DNA from: a bacterium
Lineage (GTDB): Bacteria > UBA8248
Length of the DNA: 64,000 nt
Assembly (NCBI GenBank): GCA_965213685.1
Contig: CBDBZY010000031.1
Span: forward strand, 96,001 to 160,000
Reading direction: 5' to 3'
The position numbers were made by a program, and so were the translations under genes. This document shows positions 3,080 to 60,537 of this stretch, piece by piece (the stretch's first letter is position 1; every line of letters starts with the position of its first letter). Under the pieces are notes generated by a model that made no database searches, had not been told where the DNA came from, and saw only the letters and a list, made by a program, of their open reading frames with translations.

Positions 3080-4522
3080 ATGCGCAACACGCTCCACTAC
3101 GGCGATTGCCTGAACGTCATGGCCGAAATGCCGGACGCCTTCGTTGACCTCATCTATCTCGACCCGCCGTTCAACAGCAAGAGCGATTACAACATCTTCT
3201 TCCCCAATCCCGAAATGAGCGGGGGGGGGGGGGGGGGTAGGGGGCACCTCGCCCAGATCATCGCCTTCCACGACACGTGGACATGGGATGGGCCGGCACG
3301 GGAGCGCGTGGATCGGATAAAACGCGCGGTCAAGCATCCGGCGCACGAGGCGATGACGGGGCTGGAAGTGACCCTCGGCAAGACTGGCGCGCTCGCCTAT
3401 CTCTCCTACATGGCGGAGCGGCTCGCCGAGATGAAGCGGCTGCTCAAACCCACCGGCTCCATATATCTGCACTGCGACCCCACCATGAGCCATTACCTCA
3501 AGATCGTGATGGACGGGATTTTCGGGCACAAGAATTTCCGGAACGAGATTGTGTGGTGCTATACGGGGCCAGGTTCTCCGGGGATGCGTCAATTCAATCG
3601 CAAGCATGACATCATTTTGTGGTATTCCATCGGTGAAAAATGGGTGTTCAACGCCAAGAGCGTACGCATTCCTCACAAGCGTTTGAACACCAATCGCAAG
3701 GGGGCGATGATCACCAAGCCATTGACGCCGCAGGAGCGAGAAGCGTATCTGAAAAAAGGGAAAATACCCGAAACGTGGTGGCCTGATTTTTCTCCGGTAG
3801 GCCGCCTCAAGCGCGAACGCCTTGGTTACCCGACACAAAAACCCCTCGCCCTTCTTGAGCGCATCGTCAAGGCGTCGAGCAATCCTGACGGCGTTGTCCT
3901 CGACCCGTTCTGCGGGTGCGGCACCACTATCGAGGCGGCACACAAACTGGGGCGGGCCTGGGTCGGCATCGACATATCGCCCTTCGCCATCGACCTGATT
4001 CAAAAACGCAGAATGAAAGGAATCCCGCTAGAGGTGCGCGGCATCCCGCAAGACATGCCCGGTGCGCGGAAACTCGCCCGGGACAAGCCTTTCGACTTCG
4101 AGAAGTGGGCTGTTTGCAGGATTCCGGGCCTGGCCCCCAACAAGAAGCAAGTGGGAGACGGCGGAATCGACGGGCGGGGCCTGCTATTGAGGCCGCCGGA
4201 CGATTGCGATTCCAGACTGGTGCTGGCGCAGACGAAAGGGGGGAAATTCCTTGCGAGCGGCTTGAGAGAGTTTCTCGGCGTCATGGAAAGAGACCGCGCG
4301 GCGATGGGCGTCTACATCACCCTGAATCCGGTGACGTCGCGGGATGCGCGCGCGGAGGCTCTCGCAAAAGGAAACGTCCGATACGGCGTCTCTCAATATC
4401 CGCGCGCCCAGCTGTGGTCGATCCATGATTATTTCAACGACACGCTTCCGAAGATGCCGCCGCTCGCCGACCCATACACGGGCATGGCGATGCAAGGGGA
4501 CTTGGAATTCCCGCGCGGCTAG
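3080..4522 (+). CDS. Amino-DNA methyltransferase (beta class, probably N6-adenine) with C-terminal Mrr-like/REase-fold domain
   Basis: IYLDPPF (motif IV), [23 protein letters not shown] (motif I); C-terminal DGGIDG...QTK. Confidence 0.9.
3221..3237 (+). repeat. G17 homopolymer tract in the 5' part of the methyltransferase CDS
   Basis: 17 consecutive G immediately followed by TAG; in frame as assembled (SGGGGGGRG). Confidence 0.9.
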
Positions 4523-4985
4523 CGGCGGGCGACCCCCTGTTTTTCGTGATACTGCTGGTGGTAGTCCTCGGCCATCCAGAACGCCGACGCCGGCGCAATT
4601 TCCGTCACTATCGGCCGGCGATGGCGGCCCGACGCCTCCTGCTCCTCCCTCGAGGCGCGCGCCGCCGCCTCCTGTGCCGGCGAGAAGAAATAAATGGCGG
4701 AGCGATACTGGGTGCCGACGTCGGGCCCCTGGCGGTTCAGCGTGCAGGGGTCGTGAATCCGCCAGAACAAATCCAGCAGCGCGCGGTAGGCGACCCTCTC
4801 CGGATCGAACTCCACGTGGACGACCTCCGCGTGTCCCGTGCGGCCCGAGCACACCTCCGCGTAGGTGGGCGCCTCCTTCGACCCCGCCCGAATACCCCAC
4901 CGCCGTGCGCGCCACGCCCCTCCACCCTGCGAAACGCATCCTCCACCCCCCAGAAGCAACCCGCACCGAACATGGCCTTTTCCAT
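4519..4985 (-). CDS. msrA: Peptide-methionine (S)-S-oxide reductase, two frameshifts as assembled
   Basis: [38 protein letters not shown] and AEDYHQQY spread over three frames; extra G near 4918 and 4884. Confidence 0.92.
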
Positions 4986-5018
4986 GCGCACCTCCCTAGA
5001 TCGACAACAACCAGAGAA

Positions 5019-6130
5019 TTACGGCGTTATCTCCACGCTCCCCGGCGGGCCCTCCACCACCTCGCCGAAGACGCCGGCGGCGGAGACGCCGCGCCTCGCG
5101 CAGCGCGCCCAGAAGCGCCTCCGCCCTCTCCGCGCCCACCGCGATGACGAGGCCGCCCGAGGTTTGCGCGTCGTTGAGCAGTGCGAGCATCTCCGCGTCA
5201 ACGCCCCGCTCCGGCTCGACGAACGGCCGCGTCCACAGGCGGTTTGCGCTCCCCCCCCCGCCCGCGGTGCCGGCGACCCGCGTGGGGAAGCAGTCCCTCG
5301 AACCGGGGGCACGGCGGAGAAGACCACGCGCGCCCCGCGTCCCGCTCGCCCTCCATCACGTTGTGCAGATGCCCGAGGAGGCCGAAGCCGGTCACGTCCG
5401 TGCAGGCGTTCGCGCCCACGCGCACCATGCATTCGCTCGCCCGCCTGTTCAGTGCCTTCATCGAGGCGACCGCCTCCTCGAACACCCCGTCGGGGAGTTT
5501 CCCGCCGTTTCTCCCCAGGGACGCCGCGCGCGGCGCGCAACAGGGGGTTCGCCCGCCTCGACAGGTTGGTGACGACGCCCGTGCCGAGTTTCTTCGTCAA
5601 AATCAGCTTGTCGCCCGGCTGTGCCCCCCCGGTTCGTCACCATCCTGCGGGGGTCCACCGTTCCGGTGACGGCGATGCCGTATTTCGGCTCGGCGTCCTC
5701 CACGCTGTGCCCGCCCACTATCACGCCGCCCGCCTCGCGCATCTTGTCCGCCCCGCCGGCCAGAATCCTGCCGAGGACGTCGAGCCCCAGGCGGCAGGGG
5801 AAGCCCACCAGGTTCAACCCGGTGAGGGGCTTCGCGCCCATGGTGAAGCAGTCGCTGAGCGCGTTGGCGGCGGCTATCTGGCCATAGTCGTACGGATCGT
5901 CCACGATGGGCGTGAAGAAATCCACCGTCTGCACGATGGCCAAATCCTCCCGGAGCCGATAGACGCCCGTATCGTCCCCCGGGGTTCGCGCCATACAGCA
6001 GGTCGGGGTCGGAAAACGGCTCCAGGCGGCCCAGCGCCTCTCTCAGGTCCTCCGGACCCAGCTTCGAGCCTCACCCCCCCGCCTTGACCATCCGGGTGAG
6101 CTGTATTTTTCTCTCCGACGCCGTGGCCAT
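5019..6130 (-). CDS. selD: Selenide, water dikinase (selenophosphate synthetase), Sec-containing form, several frameshifts as assembled
   Basis: LTRMVKAGG-TGA(6073-6071)-GSKLGP matches the GCGCK/GUGAK site; DDTGVY, QTVDFFTPIVDDPYDYGQIAAANALSD, TDVTGFGLLGHL and DAQTSGGL motifs. Confidence 0.93.
6043..6060 (-). promoter_or_regulatory. Putative bacterial SECIS hairpin of selD
   Basis: Minus strand TGGGTCC-GGA-GGACCTG stem-loop; loop starts about 17 nt after the in-frame TGA. Confidence 0.6.
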
Positions 6131-18858: not shown

Positions 18859-18911
18859 GCGTCCCCTGGCGCCCCTCGCGCGCGCGTGGCTCCGCACTCG
18901 GGGAGAAGACG

Positions 18912-19702
<791 letters not shown>

Positions 19703-19812: not shown

Positions 19813-20704
19813 CTACTCCCCCTCGAAGGGCTTTCTGCGCACCCTGCCCTCGCCCACCAGGGCCGCCTTCATGAGCAGAACCAGGACGTTGGTTCTGGGG
19901 ATGAGGTGGATGAAGCGGTCGAGCTTCTGATCGATCCGGTCGATCTCGCCCTCGGAGAGGCCGAGCCCCGCCGCCCGCTGCCTGCTCAAATCCACCGCGA
20001 ACGGAAACTCCTGGGCCGCGGCCGCGGCGGCGCCCTGGGCCTGGGTGACGGTGATGCGAAAGCCCGGCTTCGCCATCTCCTCTTTCAGGAAGGGCCAGAC
20101 CCGCTCCAGGAAGGGGGGATGATGGGCAAGGGCGCGCCAGACGCTGCCCAGCCCCCCGGTCGCCGCGCCGATCTCCCGGTACAGGGCGGCGAGGGCGTCC
20201 TCGGCGGCGGCCGGGTCCGCCAGGGTTTCGGTGCGCATCGAAACCGGCGGCCCCCTTGGGCAACTCGTCCAGGTCCGCATCCGCGCCCGGGCGGACGCCG
20301 CCTACCCGCACGCCGTTCAGCGCCCCCTTCAAGGCGGCCACGAGGATGAGGTTCTTGGGGTTCGCGTCGTTATACACGTCCAGAACGCCATCTATCGCGT
20401 CGATATCCTCCGGCGCGTAGCCACAATCGTCCTCGAGCTCCTCTCCCACGCTCGGGACGTCCGGCGGCATGGGCGGGGCCATCCGCATCCGCAGATTGTC
20501 GGCGCAACGCTCGAAATACGCGATGGAGGCGTTGGGCCGCAGCGCCTCCCAGGCCGCGCGAAAGTAGGGCGCATGCACGGCGAGGGCGCGATAGACGAGG
20601 TTCACCTGGGTGCTGCGGAGCACCTGCCGCACCTCCGCGTATATCGCCGCGATTTCCCCCGCGGCGCGATCCTCCGCGATTTCCTCCAAGGCGATGGGTT
20701 CCAT
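19813..20704 (-). CDS. DehI-family (group I halocarboxylic acid dehalogenase-like) protein, frameshift near 20251-20255
   Basis: Two similar halves (AGEIAAIYAEVRQ..VNLVYRALAVHAPYFRAAW / LAALYREI..SVWRALAHHPPFLERVW); YNDANPKNL. Confidence 0.65.
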
Positions 20705-20870
20705 GGCACTCCCCCCCGGCCGGGCGCGTGCGAGACGAAGGCGCAGACGGCGCGCCGCCGCCCGCATCGCCCGGAGTATAGGGGCGGGCGGAGGACGGGA
20801 CAAGGCGGCTGCGCCCCAAAAATCCGGCGGTTTTCTCGCCGAAGGCCTTGCGCTTCGGAGCGAGGCGCCA

Positions 20871-20913
20871 TATACTTGATTTGCTCAAATGTTGATGGTT
20901 GACACATTTGAGC
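20871..20913. promoter_or_regulatory. Palindromic operator upstream of the MarR-permease operon
   Basis: GCTCAAATGT-N11-ACATTTGAGC (20883-20913), overlapped by ATACTTGA-N5-TCAAATGT. Confidence 0.65.
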
Positions 20914-20996
20914 TGCCGGACAAAAAAGCGCGGGCATTCTTGACGACGCCCCCCGCCGCGAAGCGAATCGACAGCCGCCCGGAGGATTCCGTGAGG

Positions 20997-21482
20997 ATGC
21001 GCCCGACGACGCGAACCGATGGCGAGTGCGCCGCGCCCAGCGTCCGCAGCCTCGGCGCGCGCCTGCACGTGGCGCTCGACAATCTTTTCTCCCAGAAAAA
21101 ACCGGGCGCACGGCAGGCGGTGTGCTGCCACCACATCACCAACACCCAGTGGACGCTCCTCCACCTGCTCGCCGACGCGGGGGCAGCGCCCCTCTCCATG
21201 GGGGAGATCGCCAAAAGCACGCGCCTCACGCCGAGCGGGGTCACGCGCTGTGCGGACCCGCTGGTCGGGCGCGGGCTGGTCGAGCGCGTCATGCAGGAGG
21301 GCGACCGCCGCGTGTGCTGCCTGCGCCTGAGCGCGGAGGGCGCCGCGCTTCACGAGACCATCCTGAAAGGCTGCGCGGTCGAGGACGGCGCCCTTCTGTC
21401 CGCGTTCTCCCCCGATGAGCGGGAGGAGATCGTCCGCGCGGTAGAAAAACTCGCGCGCGCCGCCAGGGAGACGCCCCCATGA
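20997..21482 (+). CDS. MarR-family transcriptional regulator, Cys-rich
   Basis: ITNTQWTLL, SMGEIAK...LTPSGVTRCADPLVGRGLVER, GDRRV wing; vicinal CC pairs. Confidence 0.82.
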   Translation: MRPTTRTDGECAAPSVRSLGARLHVALDNLFSQKKPGARQAVCCHHITNTQWTLLHLLADAGAAPLSMGEIAKSTRLTPSGVTRCADPLVGRGLVERVMQEGDRRVCCLRLSAEGAALHETILKGCAVEDGALLSAFSPDEREEIVRAVEKLARAARETPP

Positions 21483-55003: not shown

Positions 55004-55612
55004 TTACGGAGACAAACCGGCCGCTTTCCCATCGGCGGCGGCGGGTTCGCGGGCGGCCGTTTTCCCCTGAAGCAGACGGCGTATCATCCCGCTCGCCCGG
55101 GCGCCGCTCCAGTCCGCGGTCCCCACGGCCCAGGCGGCCAGCCGCTGCTCGCGGTCGATGAGATAGACCGTCGGCACGAAGCGCACGTTGTGCGTCTGGC
55201 GAGACGTCCAGTCCCGGTCGTGCAGAACCGGATAGTTCAGACCTTTCCCCCTGGCCCACCTTTCCACAAGGCCTGCGCCCGCCCCGTCCACGGAAACGGC
55301 CAGAACCGTGAAATCCTCGCCCCCGTATTTCTTTTGCAGGGCGGAGAACTTGGGCATCTCCTTGTCGCACATCGGGCACCACGTGGCGAAGAAGGCGAGC
55401 AACACCACCTTCCCCCGAAAATCCCCGAGGTTGCGGGGATTTCCGGCGAGGTCCGGATATTGAAAATCCGGCGGCGGCACAGCGTTCTCCGGCGCCGCCC
55501 GCAGAACGTGGAAACGGCTTCTCTGCGCGTCGGCGGGAGAAGCCAGCATCCCCAGAAAAAGCAAGGCGGCCAGGGCGAAGACGTGAGGTCGGGAGAGCGG
55601 AATTGGTCGCAT
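55004..55612 (-). CDS. TlpA-family thiol-disulfide oxidoreductase (exported)
   Basis: GKVVLLAFFATWCPMCDKEMP and VPTVYLID motifs; signal/TM N-terminus. Confidence 0.9.
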   Translation of the reverse strand: MRPIPLSRPHVFALAALLFLGMLASPADAQRSRFHVLRAAPENAVPPPDFQYPDLAGNPRNLGDFRGKVVLLAFFATWCPMCDKEMPKFSALQKKYGGEDFTVLAVSVDGAGAGLVERWARGKGLNYPVLHDRDWTSRQTHNVRFVPTVYLIDREQRLAAWAVGTADWSGARASGMIRRLLQGKTAAREPAAADGKAAGLSP

Positions 55613-55757
55613 GACGCTTCCTCGTGTACACTGGAAGATGCCGTTCGCAAGATACCACATTTCTGCCCGTGCGAACCACGGCCCGTGCGAACCACGCAAG
55701 CGGGCGTCGCGCGGAATCCGGGCGGAAAGGGGATACATAATAAGGGGAGCGCCGGTC

Positions 55758-56618
55758 ATGTGGTCCATCCTGGTCGCGTTCTCGCTCCTCGCACTCCCCC
55801 CTCCCGCAGAGGGGGCGGCCCGCCGTTGCGCGGAGGATGCGGGCGTCGTCAGAATCCCGCCGGGCGCCTTCTGGATGGGCAGCGACAGGGCCGAGCGGGA
55901 CTATGGCTATCGAATCGGGAGCCGCGCCGCGCGCGCGGGGGGCTGGTTCGACAACTGGGAGCGTCGGCGCAAGCGCGTCGCCCTGCCCGAATACTTCATC
56001 GACAAGAATCTGGCGACCCAGGCCGCATACCGCCGCTTCATCCGGGCGAGCGGCCATCGCGCGCCCTTCATCTCGGCGGGGGACTATCAGCGCCAGGGCT
56101 ACCTCGTCCACCCGTATGCGTCCGTTCGCCGCTACCTTTGGACTGAAGACGAAAACGGCAGGCCCACCTACCCGGAGGGCCTCCGGCATCACCCGGTCGT
56201 GCTCGTGAGCCAATCGGACGCGGAGGCCTATTGCGCCTGGCGGGGCGGAAAATCCGCGGGGCGATACCGCCTGCCCACAGAGGCGGAATGGGAAAAGGCG
56301 GCGCGCGGCGCCGACGCCCGGTATTTCCCCTGGGGGAGCGCATTCGACCCCCGGCGCCTGAACCACGCCTACGCGGTGGGCGCCACGACGCCCGCAGGCG
56401 CATATCCGCAGGGAAGAAGCCCGTATGGCGTCCTCGACATGGCGGGAAACGTTTTTGAATGGACGTCGACCCCGTTTTCCCCATCAACCGCCACGATGAA
56501 AGGCGGCGGCTCCTGGGACGACCAGCCAGGCATCACGCGGGCGGCCGCCCGCCATGGCCGCGACCCGAAGGCCAGGCACTTGCTTTTTGGCTTTCGGTGC
56601 GTTTGCGCGAACCGATGA
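55758..56618 (+). CDS. Exported formylglycine-generating enzyme (SUMF1/FGE-sulfatase) domain protein
   Basis: PGAFWMGS, HPVVLVS, RLPTEAEWEKAARG, DMAGNVFEW and GFRC motifs. Confidence 0.9.
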   Translation: MWSILVAFSLLALPPPAEGAARRCAEDAGVVRIPPGAFWMGSDRAERDYGYRIGSRAARAGGWFDNWERRRKRVALPEYFIDKNLATQAAYRRFIRASGHRAPFISAGDYQRQGYLVHPYASVRRYLWTEDENGRPTYPEGLRHHPVVLVSQSDAEAYCAWRGGKSAGRYRLPTEAEWEKAARGADARYFPWGSAFDPRRLNHAYAVGATTPAGAYPQGRSPYGVLDMAGNVFEWTSTPFSPSTATMKGGGSWDDQPGITRAAARHGRDPKARHLLFGFRCVCANR

Positions 56619-56801
56619 GGCCGCATTCTCCAAGAAGCGGCGCCGCGACCGGTCTGTCCGGAACACGGGGGAACGCTCCCGCATTCCACGCCGCCGCCCG
56701 ACGCGGAGCGTTCCCATGCGCCGACAAATGCGCCATATTCCCCCTTGGGCGTTGCGCCCCCGGCAGAGAATCTCCTTTCCCCGTTTGCGCAGGAGCGCGC
56801 C

Positions 56802-57401
56802 ATGACCTGGATAGAGCCCATCTCCCCGGACGCTGCGGAGGGGGCGACGAAAAAAATTCTCGAAGACCTGCGCGCGGCGAGAAAAGCGGTTCCCAGGCTC
56901 TTTCTCCAGATGGGCCGAAGGCCCGGCGTTCTGGCCGGACGCGAGACGCTCCGCCGCTCGGTCCACGGCGGCTCCAGCCTGGGCAGGAGGCGAGAGGAGC
57001 TGCTCGCCTTCTATCTGGCGGCCCACGGCGGGTGATACGGCTGAGCGATGAACCACGGGCAGTTGTTCCGTGACGCGTGCGATGACGTCTCCATCGCCGA
57101 AGTGGCCGAGATACTCGACGCGCCCGCCCGGGCGCGAGCGCTCGACTCGGCGGACCGCGCCATGCTCGCGTATGCGGCAAAAATGACCCGCGCGCCTCGT
57201 CAACTGAGCGAAAGCGACATCGCGCGCTTGCGGCGCGCCGGCTTCAGCGAGGACAATGTGGTCGACATCATCGCGGCCGCGGCCTACAGAAACTTCGCCA
57301 ACGCCATCAACCACGCCTACGGGTACGTAGAGCAAAATCCCGAAGGCCCCGCAGAGTTGCAGGCCGCCATCCAGAGGTTGAAAAGGAAAATCGGTGGATA
57401 A
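56802..57401 (+). CDS. AhpD-like peroxidase-related selenoprotein with UxxU (two Sec)
   Basis: ORFs ending 57035 and starting 57048 are one frame: REELLAFYLAAHGG-TGA-Y-G-TGA-AMNHG, the AhpD CxxCxxxH position; C-half DRAMLAYAAKMT..DIARLRRAGFSED..AAYRNFAN; AGGAG RBS. Confidence 0.8.
57054..57072 (+). promoter_or_regulatory. Putative SECIS hairpin
   Basis: CACGGG-CAGTTGT-TCCGTG; loop starts about 15 nt after the second TGA and about 24 nt after the first. Confidence 0.55.
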
Positions 57402-58143
57402 AAAATCCCGCGCCCTCTCCTCCGCCTCCTGGCTGGGCCTGTTCGTATCGCTCGCCTGCGCATTGGCCGCCCTGGCGTCGGGGATGGGCCATCGCTGGGG
57501 CTTGTGGGATTTCGGCGCGGGGTTCCAGATTCTGAAGGCCGCCTCCATCGTCGCGCTCCTCTCCGTGGCCGTCTCCATGACGGGGGGAGTGTTCGCCCTG
57601 CGCGACGCCGCCAGAGCTAGGACGCTGGCCGCCGCCGCCGGCGTCGCACTCGGCTTCGGCGTGGCGGGCTTTCTCCACGCGCAAATGCAGATCGCCAGAC
57701 GGGTGCCCAGAATTCACGACATCACGACGGACGCGAAAAACCCGCCCGCCTTCCGGGCCCTCCTCCCGCTGAGAGAGGGGGCGAAAAACCCGCCCGCCTA
57801 CGAGGGGGCGCGCGTCGGACGGCTCCAGCACAAGGCGTATCCCGACATCGCGCCGCTCCTCTCCCGGGAGTCCAGGAGAGAGGTTTTCGGGCGCGCTCTG
57901 GCGGCCGCGCGCGCCATGGGCTGGCGGGTGGTGGCTTCCGACCCGGAGGAAGGACGCATCGAGGCGTATGACGAGACGTTCTGGTATGGCTTCATCGATG
58001 ACGTCGTCATCCGGATAACGTCGGAGGATGGAGCGACGCGCCTCGACATCCGCTCGAAATCCCGCGTGGGCGTGGGCGACGTCGGAGCGAACGCCAGGCG
58101 GATTCGCGGCTTTTTCCAAAAAATGAAAACTGCGATACACTGA
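57394..58143 (+). CDS. DUF1499 domain membrane protein
   Basis: N-terminal TM segments; PRIHDITTD, YPDIAP, GFIDDVVIRI and DIRSKSRVGVGDVGANARRI motifs. Confidence 0.88.
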   Translation: MDKKSRALSSASWLGLFVSLACALAALASGMGHRWGLWDFGAGFQILKAASIVALLSVAVSMTGGVFALRDAARARTLAAAAGVALGFGVAGFLHAQMQIARRVPRIHDITTDAKNPPAFRALLPLREGAKNPPAYEGARVGRLQHKAYPDIAPLLSRESRREVFGRALAAARAMGWRVVASDPEEGRIEAYDETFWYGFIDDVVIRITSEDGATRLDIRSKSRVGVGDVGANARRIRGFFQKMKTAIH

Positions 58144-58214
58144 GGGCCTCTGCTTTTTCTGGCGAGGATGCGCCATGAGAGGATGGCGCCTCGAACATCC
58201 TGACGAGGAAGCGG

Positions 58215-60537
58215 ATGTCTGATTATCAGGTGCTGGGCAAACCCATCCCCAGGCTCGACTCGGCGGAGAAAGTCTCCGGATTCGCCGATTTTGGCGACGA
58301 TTTGCAAAGGCCCGGCCGCCTCGTCGCGAAATTGCTCCTCAGCCCGCACGCCCACGCCAAAATCCGGAAAATCGACGCCCGCGCGGCCCGGCAAGTCCCT
58401 GGCGTCCACGCCGTCGTCACGGCGGAGGATTTCTCCGGCATTCGCCACGGGAGGCTCGTGCGCGACGAGCCGCTGCTGGCCATCGACAAGGTGCTGTATA
58501 TCGGCGAGCGGGTGGCGGCCGTCGCCGCCGAGACCCCGGAGGCCGCGCAGGCGGCGATCGAGAAAATCCGTGTGGACTATCAAACCCTCCCCGCCGTGTT
58601 CACGACGGAGGACGCCCTCCAAGACGGGGCACCGCTCCTCCATGAGTCGCTGGATGATTTCATATCGTTTCCGGGCATCGTCCGCTATGGAAACGTGGCC
58701 GCGGAGATTCTCGTGCGCTCGGGCGATCCCGTCGAGGACGCGCTGGCGCGCGCCGATTTCGTCTTTGAGGACGCATACGAAACGCCCCGCGTTCACCAGA
58801 ATTATCTCGAACCGCGCGCCATGCTCGCCGAGCCCGGCCCCGAGGACAGCACGATCGTGCATTCCCCCACCCAGGCGGCCTTCGTGGTGCGCGCCATCTG
58901 CGCGGAAATCCTCGAACTGCCCATGAACAAGCTGCGCGTGGTGAGCACCCACGTGGGAGGGGCCTTTGGCGGCAAATCCCAGCACCTGCTGGAAGCCGTG
59001 GCCGTTCTGCTGAGCAGAAAGACGAACCGGCCCGTTCAGCTGACCCTCAGCCGCGAGGAGGAGACCATCACCGGAAACCCGAGACACGCCTACCACATGC
59101 GCTATCGGACGGGCGTGACCGGGGAGGGGAGGATCATCGCGCGCCATGTGGAAATCACATCGAACAACGGCGCCTATTGCATGACGGGGCCCATGGTGCT
59201 GGGAAAGTCCTGCTACACCAGCGGGGGGCCATACAAGATTCCCCACGTCCGGGTCGACGGCCTCCTCGTATATACGAACCTGCCCCCCAGCGGCTCCTAC
59301 CGGGGGCTGGGCGTGGCGCAGGTCGCCTTCGCCTGCGAGCGTCACACCGACCGCATCGCCTCCGAACTGCGAATGGACCCCCTCGCCTTTCGGCTCCGCA
59401 ACGCGATGGATGAAAACGACCGCGACCCCGCCGGCACGATCCTGCAAAGCGTGAGCATCAAGGAAACGCTGGAGTGCGCGGGCAGGCGGGCCGGCTGGAA
59501 GGAGCGGAGCGGCAAGCGCCGGGGCGGCGGCAGAATCCGGCGGGGGCGGGGCATCGGCTGCGCGCGCTACCCCACGGGGGGCGGCGCGTCGGGGGCTGTC
59601 GTGAAGGTGAACGAGGATGGCGGCCTCGCCGTGCTGGCCGGGTGCTCCGACCTGGGCACGGGAGCGGCCACCCTGATGGCGCAGGTGGCGGCGGAGGTCC
59701 TCCAGTCGGAGGTTGCGAAGGTGCGCGTTCACGTCGCCGACACCGAAACCACGCCCTTTGACGCCATCACCGCCGGCAGCCGAACCACGTTCAACATGGC
59801 ACACGCAGTGCGCATGGCGGCGGAGGACGCGCGGGAGCAGATGCTGCGCCAGGCGGCGCGCACCCTCGAATCCTCGCCGGAGGATTTGGACATCGGCGAG
59901 GGGAACATATTCGTGCGCTCGGCGCCCTCGCGCGCCATTCCGTTCGCCGAGGTGGCGCACGCGGCCGTCTGGAAGGGCGACGGCCCCGTGACGGGGCGCG
60001 GCGCCTACCGCGGAGAGAATCCGCCCCACCGGGCACACAACGTGCGGGGGCATCCGGAACCATCGAGGCCGGGGCCGGAATTCGCCACCCAGATCGCCGA
60101 GGTCGAAGTCGACGTCGAGACGGGAGAAACCTCGGTCGTGCGGATCACCAGCGCGCAAGACGTGGGCTTCGCCATGAACCCCCTCACCCTGAACGGCCAG
60201 ATAGAGGGGGGGCATCGCGCAGGGGCTGGGCTGGGCGCTGGCCGAGCGGATTCACCATGAGGGCGGCCTCATCACCCACCCGGACTTCGAGAGCCAGCTC
60301 AATCCCACGAGTCTGGACGTCTCGGACGTCGAGAGCGTGATCGTGGAATCGCCCGACGCGGAGGGCCCCTTTGGCGCGAAAGGAGCGGGGGAGATGCCGC
60401 TCATTCCGGCTGCGCCCGCCATCGCCAACGCGATTGCCGACGCCATCGGGGATCCGGCGAACCCGCACCTCAACAGGCTGCCCATCGCACCGGAAGACAT
60501 CGTCCGCGCGGTTCGGGAGAACAGCCCCGCCCCCTAG
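58215..60537 (+). CDS. Xanthine dehydrogenase-family molybdopterin-binding (large) subunit, frameshift in the G run near 60206-60212
   Basis: SPHAHAKI, GGAFGGK, YRGLGVAQ, DLGTG, AGSRT, NP...GQIEGG and FGAKGAGE (catalytic Glu) motifs. Confidence 0.93.

Follow-up and report, generated by a model that had tools for sequence, protein, structure and literature searches.

The DNA stretch analysed here, referred to as the window, comprises 64,000 nucleotides (positions 96,001 to 160,000) of contig CBDBZY010000031.1 from the bacterial assembly GCA_965213685.1 (GTDB lineage UBA8248). In this window, a gene was identified whose reading frame contains two in-frame TGA codons, and which codes for a protein related to AhpD when both TGAs are read as selenocysteine (Sec, U). 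The two codons replace both cysteines of the CxxC redox motif, giving a UxxU motif, and are followed by a hairpin that resembles a selenocysteine insertion sequence (SECIS). Overall, the locus is probably best explained by a double-Sec selenoprotein of the AhpD fold, for which both UGAs would be recoded by means of this one hairpin. The features of the locus are listed in Table 1.

Table 1. Features of the putative UxxU gene and of its surroundings in the window.
Feature	Position	Strand	Remarks
Coding sequence of the putative UxxU AhpD-like (TIGR01926) selenoprotein	56802..57401	+	199 aa + TAA with TGA = U; orthologues align end to end
First in-frame TGA (UGA1), U78	57033..57035	+	Column of the first Cys in CxxC
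Second in-frame TGA (UGA2), U81	57042..57044	+	Column of the second Cys in CxxC; Sec position of known CxxU AhpD-like proteins
Codon of E66, proton-relay glutamate	56997..56999	+	12 residues before U78; >=90% conserved in the alignment
SECIS-like hairpin	57054..57072	+	7 pairs, one bulged U, apical loop AGUU; minimum free energy (MFE) fold, -6.1 kcal/mol
Gene for DUF1499 membrane protein	57394..58143	+	Pfam match; start overlaps the AhpD stop by 8 nt
Gene for molybdopterin-binding subunit, xanthine dehydrogenase (XDH) / 4-hydroxybenzoyl-CoA reductase family	58215..60260	+	Frame breaks near the C-terminus
Gene for FGE-sulfatase domain protein, upstream	55611..56618	+	Domain match
Gene for SelD with its own Sec codon (GGUGSK)	4996..6110 (about)	-	Frame-broken, about 10 single-base insertions

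A preliminary description of the window had quoted the letters GGC GGG TGA TAC GGC TGA GCG ATG AAC CAC GGG, which were found at 57027-57059. It had also placed the two TGAs on both Cys positions of a CxxC motif within a frame of 199 amino acids, and this was borne out by the translation and by the alignment of homologues. With translation table 11, two pieces result, 56745..57035 and 57048..57401, the latter being an open reading frame of 117 aa starting from ATG 57048. In the Logan contigs of four public runs, all belonging to one study, the region 56600-58200 is spanned in single pieces, and TGA rather than TGC or TGT is present at both sites in all of them. Three of the four contigs are identical to the window letter for letter and may be the source of the assembly. 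The fourth represents a variant with 40 substitutions, six of them within the gene, with none in either TGA and without any indel.

Orthologues were searched for in the whole phylum set of 51 genomes, of which 42 belong to the same family and nine to the other three families. The double-TGA gene was identified in 24 of the 42 family genomes, this genome included: in 19 of 23 genomes of the window's genus g1 (this genome and 18 of the 22 others), in four of five of genus g2 and in the single genome of genus g3. It was found neither in the remaining 13 family genomes at E <= 1e-56 nor in the nine genomes of the other three families at E <= 1e-28. A metagenome scan used one fixed DNA pattern, for UYGUxxNHG, and covered only UxxU genes with these middle residues. 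It matched 88 stretches; 80 loci (81 sites) were evaluated, and 15 had any BLASTP match. At least seven metagenome contigs carry true orthologues (50-76% identity), all of which group within the UxxU clade, and the remaining pattern sites listed were rejected as chance or motif-only matches. A distant match with two TGAs in genome G025 was rejected as well, since it represents a CFYU protein that terminates at the second TGA.

The motif GGUYGUA[M/V/I]NHG was present at every UxxU locus inspected. Both TGAs are intact in all 23 other orthologue-bearing genomes, while synonymous sites differ by about 40-50%, and not a single frameshift was found in 31 aligned genes (23 UxxU, 8 CxxU). The columns in question hold TGA/TGA in the orthologues, TGY/TGA in a paralogue and Cys/Cys in distant homologues, at exactly the same positions. 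The strength of selection was estimated by the pairwise Nei-Gojobori method on 19 same-genus genes (171 pairs). The region before U78 gave a mean proportion of synonymous differences (pS) of 0.42 and a median ratio of nonsynonymous to synonymous change (dN/dS) of 0.13, and the region after U81 a mean pS of 0.38 and a median dN/dS of 0.18. A pS of about 0.4 in combination with a low dN/dS on both halves indicates purifying selection, with ample opportunity for loss of the TGAs. Instead of the relaxed selection expected for a pseudogene, both flanks thus show constraint (dN/dS 0.13-0.2). The codon at ATG 57048, from which the second half might have been translated separately, is GTC, GTA, GTG, ATT or ATA in five orthologues, which shows that such a start is not conserved. 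TGA also serves as the true stop of the gene in six of the 23 UxxU genes, and is therefore not generally reassigned. The gene appears to be functional and both UGAs appear to be read through, which is well supported by these comparisons.

One genome of the same genus, G010, is without the full UxxU gene and holds two equal-scoring C-terminal copies (C4:127136-127393 and C5:835959-836216). These cover residues 114-199 only, with 67% identity and no stops, and may be remnants or a duplicated fragment.

Among 5.8 billion protein clusters, all 25 relatives identified (E <= 1e-20) are C-terminal fragments of 116-118 aa, and none is full-length. These public fragments start at the Met after the second UGA, and two of them are named 'hypothetical protein [Nitrospinae bacterium]'. 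Since only C-terminal fragments have been called, the family is invisible in protein databases, which amounts to a systematic mis-annotation.

By six-frame search, a paralogue was identified in the same assembly (C42:44216-44791, minus strand). It shares 49% identity, has the CxxU motif GGCYGU and ends with a TGA stop. Its contig C42 has a GC content of 65%, as has the contig of the window. Close copies of this CxxU paralogue occur in 22 of the 23 g1 genomes and in two other genera, which lack the UxxU form; it is accompanied by none of the neighbours of the UxxU gene. A maximum-likelihood tree was calculated from 41 rows, leaving out L105 (partial), L112 and L073 (both identical to L121) and G065. 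Here, the 27 UxxU rows formed one clade (98/100), which adjoins the CxxU paralogues. CxxC proteins, the closest full-length one of which has 42% identity, fall outside the UxxU/CxxU grouping. The simplest history suggested by this tree would lead from CxxC to CxxU and then, by one change in one lineage, to UxxU. The origin of the gene is probably a single event in one bacterial family, in which the first Cys codon of a CxxU selenoprotein gene changed from TGY to TGA.

With U read as C, the protein matched TIGR01926 ('peroxidase-related enzyme') over residues 3-177 with 83.5 bits, a narrow margin above the cut-off of 81.8, and Pfam CMD with 24.9 versus a cut-off of 23. An AlphaFold2 (AF2) model built from 22 orthologues is all-helical, with a mean predicted local distance difference test score of 79.9, a predicted template modelling (TM) score of 0.75 and low confidence for the N-terminal ~60 residues; U78 immediately precedes the helix 79-92. 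The top match was Deinococcus radiodurans AhpD (6k40), with a Foldseek E of 4.9e-6 and an E of 8.2e-20 in a profile search of PDB sequences. The Foldseek top set consists of 6k40, 2pfx, 3c1l, 2prr and 2oyo (E 5e-6 to 3e-5, TM 0.55-0.63), the last four being 'uncharacterized peroxidase-related proteins' of the Joint Center for Structural Genomics. CvyC of 6k40 aligns with UygU, its chain C-v-y-C-a-v-s-H-G lying under the profile G-G-c-y-G-c-a-l-n-h-G. The protein is a genuine member of the AhpD fold and of the TIGR01926 / COG2128 'peroxidase-related' subfamily.

U78, U81 and H85 are invariant in the orthologue alignment. Together with E66 they form the relay signature E66-x11-U78-Y-G-U81-x3-H85, which is the signature Glu-x11-Cys-x2-Cys-x3-His with Sec for both Cys. 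The available part of one paper gives the relay residues as Glu118/Cys130/Cys133/His137 for Mycobacterium tuberculosis AhpD and as Glu36/Cys48/Cys51/His55 for Pseudomonas aeruginosa PA0269 (PMC3141380), and the spacings of the four residues in the UxxU protein equal those in both enzymes.

For the insertion of Sec, a tRNA-Sec with canonical 8/5 acceptor/T arms (78.6 bits), SelA (564 bits) and SelB (370 bits) were identified, all on contigs of 65% GC like that of the window. In the preliminary description, a Sec-containing SelD in the same window had been cited in favour of Sec decoding. Such a gene with its GGUGSK Sec codon is indeed present, but its frame is broken. In comparison to an intact SelD of the same genus, the insertions lie mostly in G/C runs, and an intact Sec-SelD with one TGA was found in all five relatives tested. 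MsrA beside SelD (the two together at 4519-6110 of the window, minus strand) and the C-terminus of the XDH-family gene (~60210-60260, plus strand) are also frame-broken. Since these genes are affected as well, the SelD of the relatives is intact and the pattern is that of homopolymer runs, the SelD frameshifts are probably local assembly indel errors.

A tRNA(ReC), a tRNA resembling tRNA-Sec which together with SelB could read UGA as Cys, was also searched for. ARAGORN called one tRNA-Sec and no other tRNA with a UCA anticodon in this genome. In the 42 family genomes, the Rfam model RF01852 gave one strong match (72-79 bits) in 39, and two equal-scoring matches in G015 and G035 only; all other matches reached at most 49 bits, and the one of ~44 bits in this genome is tRNA-Leu(CAA). 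A 98-nt tRNA-Cys(gca) called by ARAGORN on contig C13 was rejected as a tRNA(ReC) candidate, as its acceptor stem is mismatched and Rfam gives no match to it at E<=1. Provided that the UGAs are read through, it is likely from the sequence evidence that both insert Sec.

The hairpin behind the second UGA, which had been noticed already in the preliminary description, was recovered as the MFE fold of its 19 nt. Its 5' arm opens at the codon of H85, its 3' arm spans the codons of F89-R90, and the apical loop, which is GGUC in genus g2 versus AGUU in the window, starts 16 nt past UGA2 and 25 nt past UGA1. In the available part of a recent review (PMC13188914), the bacterial SECIS (bSECIS) is described by an apical loop of 3-9 nt, a stem of 4-16 bp, a G in the first two loop positions, a distance from UGA to loop of 16-37 nt and an MFE <= -7.5 kcal/mol. 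For both UGAs, the hairpin fits this description in the size of its loop, the length of its stem, the loop G (followed by U) and the spacing, in agreement with the SECIS-compatible distances proposed earlier. Most UxxU genes have a hairpin energy of -6.1 to -6.7 kcal/mol, with outliers at -10.0 and -3.1. The CxxU paralogues share the 5-bp lower stem and its place, but their loop has 9 nt and their energy is only -2.3 to -5.7 kcal/mol. In comparison to this larger loop and weaker energy, the tetraloop with its closing C-G pair indicates a tighter apical part in the UxxU lineage.

Codon usage serves better than covariation as an internal control here, and the codons of the stem vary little. R90, whose codon supplies three positions of the stem, is encoded by CGT in all 22 UxxU genes having Arg there and in all eight CxxU genes; elsewhere in these genes, CGT accounts for 44 of 383 Arg codons (11.5%), and each of nine other invariant Arg columns draws on 3-5 codons. 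In 23/23 UxxU genes, the codon is CAC for H85 and TTC for F89, and that of G86 is limited to GGG or GGA, either of which pairs with the opposite U. Columns with an invariant residue and a single codon make up 2/7 inside codons 79-91 versus 1/46 outside (Fisher p = 0.04, which is indicative only because the sequences are kin). It is fairly likely that this one hairpin would serve both UGAs.

In the proposed mechanism, both UGAs would be recoded by SelB·Sec-tRNA(Sec) under the guidance of the hairpin. The hairpin may have been inherited from the CxxU form, in which it would have served the second position, and may have been tightened in the UxxU lineage, where it has seven base pairs, a bulged U and an RGUY tetraloop. 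The ribosome would reach UGA1 with the loop 25 nt ahead and, three codons on, UGA2 with the loop 16 nt ahead; since both UGAs would be read in succession on the same hairpin, a second SelB ternary complex would have to load there. The mature protein would cycle between the diselenol and an intramolecular diselenide, or proceed through a selenenic acid intermediate, and is predicted to be a low-potential reductase of peroxides or of disulfides/selenosulfides. Formation of the diselenide would be chemically expected. In the genus of the window, the gene may be cotranscribed with that of the DUF1499 membrane protein. For the complete scheme, namely one 19-nt hairpin, two SelB-dependent insertions three codons apart, a diselenide-forming AhpD and a CxxU paralogue with a weaker hairpin made alongside it, the chances are judged to be evenly balanced. 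The earlier interpretation as a diselenide-type AhpD redox enzyme with a double UGA is supported by the sequence comparisons.

Several points weigh against this interpretation. With -6.1 kcal/mol, the 19-nt hairpin is weaker than the -7.5 kcal/mol of the bSECIS description, and only a 48-nt context that takes in the flanking lower stem reaches -9.6. When pairing was scored on 34 aligned sequences (26 distinct), 90.7% of the cells were paired versus 22-46% with the 3' partner slid, but this control is biased in favour of the hairpin, as the structure string was derived from the same sequences. None of the seven pairs changed on both sides, four of the seven never vary, and 229 of 500 shuffles paired as well as the hairpin, the stem of which is composed of codons for conserved residues (H85-G86, F89-R90). 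A structure of the hairpin is not proven by covariation. RNAalifold favours a mutually exclusive helix of columns 10-17 with columns 34-46, in which the codons of Tyr79-Gly80 pair with those of F89-R90, and which holds the only compensatory change of the set, UAU/CAU in G035; the two folds may alternate. The frozen codons may reflect a SECIS for UGA2 alone and are silent on the decoding of UGA1. In E. coli, the spacing between UGA and SECIS is reported to be strict, which would disfavour two spacings 9 nt apart. The SelD is frame-broken in this assembly and possibly a real pseudogene in this one genome. The ARAGORN and Rfam screen found no tRNA(ReC)-like gene, although weak or atypical genes could escape it. 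According to the available part of the 2026 hydrogenase paper, one or both UGAs in UXXU proteins may be read as Cys via tRNA(ReC) (PMC13582414).

The last point leads to a mixed decoding, in which U81 alone would receive Sec and UGA78 would be read as Cys, either by tRNA(ReC) with SelB or by some near-cognate tRNA. This would make the mature protein CxxU-like, and UGA78 would be regulatory or an evolutionary intermediate. An enrichment of tRNA(ReC) in genomes that have UXXU hydrogenases is stated in the same part of that paper (PMC13582414), and the 25 nt between UGA1 and the loop exceed the spacing in the CxxU paralogue of this lineage by 9 nt. Set against this are the outcome of the ARAGORN call in this genome, the poor quality of its odd tRNA-Cys(gca), and the single strong RF01852 match in nearly all of the family. 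Moreover, Cys could be encoded at lower cost by TGY, but all 31 UxxU sequences, from three genera, have retained TGA. Mixed decoding is therefore regarded as rather unlikely. A further candidate, more doubtful still, is a selenium-gated switch: UGA78 would mostly terminate and give a 77-aa fragment when Sec-tRNA is scarce, with little of the full-length protein being made, so that the double UGA would be regulatory and not catalytic. Two successive recodings on one hairpin should indeed be inefficient. However, purifying selection acts alike on the regions after U81 and before U78 (dN/dS 0.18 vs 0.13), and H85 of the relay and most of the fold lie past U81, leaving the 77-aa fragment without the active-site helix. 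In all 19 same-genus loci, the DUF1499 gene starts before the full-length frame has ended, which fits ribosomes that reach the end of this frame.

It is very unlikely that two SECIS elements share the work, with 57054-57072 serving UGA1 and a second hairpin at 57079-57097 (6-bp stem) serving UGA2. Both hairpins are present in the centroid fold of 57025-57110, and in G024 both arms of the second stem are changed in a compensating manner from GAUG/CAUC to GAAG/CUUC. The second loop starts 40 nt past UGA2, outside of the range of 16-37 nt, however, and neither of its first two nucleotides is a G. G014 and G017 have a disrupted stem, the g2 sequences have none at this place, and for decoding the second position the CxxU paralogues have a hairpin at the place of the first one only. 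The element at 57079-57097 was thus ruled out as a second SECIS on the basis of spacing, loop sequence and poor conservation. Hardly any weight is left for a non-functional locus, be it a pseudogene that acquired two nonsense mutations, a pair of halves translated on their own or an artefact of sequencing. Such a view could draw on the public gene callers, which give only the C-terminal open reading frame of 116-118 aa, and on the indel errors of the assembly elsewhere. It is opposed by the presence of the TGAs in the contigs of four runs including the variant strain, in 23 other genomes and in at least seven metagenome contigs, by the low dN/dS of both halves and the intact frames of all 31 aligned genes, and by the substitution of ATG 57048 in orthologues. 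A double-Sec protein decoded with one hairpin remains the preferred explanation.

The DUF1499 gene is located downstream in 19 of 19 same-genus loci and also in genus g3, and the order AhpD-DUF1499-molybdopterin subunit is kept in all 19 same-genus loci. The FGE-sulfatase gene is located upstream in five of the 19; in g2, it is full-length at one locus and present as short fragments at two. The FGE-sulfatase protein is secreted-looking and has a weak similarity to sulfoxide/selenoneine synthases of the SenA/EgtB type, with 80 bits versus a cut-off of 420. No ahpC neighbour was seen in the annotated stretch of the window, and the neighbouring genes point to no particular substrate. A Sec codon in the XDH-family gene was considered and rejected, since the frame degenerates ahead of the TGA at ~60258, which identifies a frameshift. 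Scans for promoters and terminators gave nothing above the shuffled expectation. A scan of the 65% GC contigs for further U-x(1-4)-U frames gave 304 candidates, nearly all of them out-of-frame noise, and the only one tested (20123-21415) matched no Pfam family.

The assembly is a mixture of two organisms. One set consists of 49 contigs with more than 60% GC (3.07 Mb), with 53 tRNAs and 44 distinct anticodons; genomes of the same genus span 2.9-4.6 Mb. The second set consists of 22 contigs with 43-54% GC (4.9 Mb) and 199 tRNA-like matches, the anticodons of which are very skewed (cta 42, agc 30, aga 27, ggt 23, agt 22). All 42 'CTA' copies vary only slightly around a single sequence, which looks like a tRNA-derived repeat family; possibly, the second genome is eukaryotic. 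In the window, a cluster of Lys, Arg and His tRNAs is accompanied by a fourth Rfam tRNA match at 18908-18969 on the minus strand, which is partial (34.4 bits, positions 7-64 of the model). It has no ARAGORN call and may be a truncated tRNA.

If the double-Sec reading is correct, the AhpD fold would join the short list of proteins with a natural UxxU centre. The 2026 hydrogenase paper raises the question whether one bacterial SECIS can recode two UGAs 9 nt apart, and the locus would offer a test system for it: a UxxU gene and a CxxU paralogue with homologous hairpins occur in one genome, and the UxxU form can be compared across 31 natural sequences. This would constitute a natural experiment on the flexibility of SECIS spacing and on the speed of SelB reloading, and would also provide a compact natural cassette by which a protein could be given a diselenide. 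Diselenides have redox potentials much lower than those of disulfides, and a diselenide AhpD would thus suggest low-potential redox chemistry in this little-studied lineage.

In the available parts of two reviews from 2022 and 2026, the AhpD-like protein (TIGR01926 / COG2128) is listed as CxxU with one Sec only (PMC13188914, PMC9312934), which agrees with the earlier statement that AhpD-like selenoproteins are usually CxxU. The UxxU motif, which had been described as very rare, is less exceptional than assumed. In the part available of an ocean-sampling survey, which likewise gives the AhpD-like family as CxxU with one Sec, it was reported solely in a Prx-like family (PMC2398784), and Prx-like, metal-binding, FmdB-family and group 4 hydrogenase selenoproteins with UxxU have been published from bacteria, as far as the parts of the sources at hand go (PMC13188914, PMC9312934, PMC13582414). 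No AhpD-like UxxU protein was described in the full-text literature searched, whereas the supplementary tables of PMC13582414 and of BSepDB (PMC13326102), which lay outside this search, could list some. The protein is a variant of the AhpD-like CxxU selenoprotein family for which UxxU is not listed, while UxxU itself is not new in bacteria.

With the AhpD-like family (TIGR01926 / COG2128, YciW-type; 'AhpD-like 1' in the ocean-sampling survey), the protein shares the family of the hidden Markov model, the all-helical fold and the Sec at the position of the second Cys. The CxxU paralogue of this genome has a SECIS-like hairpin at the same place. In contrast to this family, the first Cys is also encoded by UGA here, and the apical part of the hairpin is tighter. 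The characterised CxxC enzymes M. tuberculosis AhpD and PA0269 have the same relay layout and the same helix-turn-helix active-site motif, whereas both Cys are replaced by Sec in the present protein; M. tuberculosis AhpD is a distant relative (Foldseek E about 0.1).

SelL is a eukaryotic selenoprotein of the thioredoxin fold, which has a UxxU motif, forms a diselenide and is decoded with a SECIS in the 3'-UTR. The present protein resembles SelL in having UxxU in place of a CxxC redox centre, and by analogy a diselenide would be the expected product here too. It differs in the all-alpha AhpD fold and in the in-frame bacterial hairpin. A thioredoxin fold was not found, the model being all-alpha and matching AhpD/CMD structures only. 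The protein is therefore not a member of the SelL family, though it may work likewise via a diselenide.

Two UGAs three codons apart in a CxxC-derived motif are also present in the Prx-like thiol:disulfide oxidoreductase (PF00578), in a metal-binding protein (NF041115), in the FmdB family (TIGR02605) and in the large subunits of the group 4 [NiFeSe] hydrogenases. In the latter, a single downstream SECIS has been proposed for both UGAs, as given in the available part of the 2026 paper (PMC13582414), and the question of whether one downstream SECIS serves both UGAs is shared by the present gene and the other bacterial UxxU proteins. In the hydrogenases and in the metal-binding protein NF041115, the motif binds metal instead of serving as a redox dithiol, and all of these proteins belong to families other than that of the present one. 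Unlike the other bacterial UxxU systems, the present one has a CxxU paralogue with a homologous hairpin in the same genome, which provides an internal comparison.

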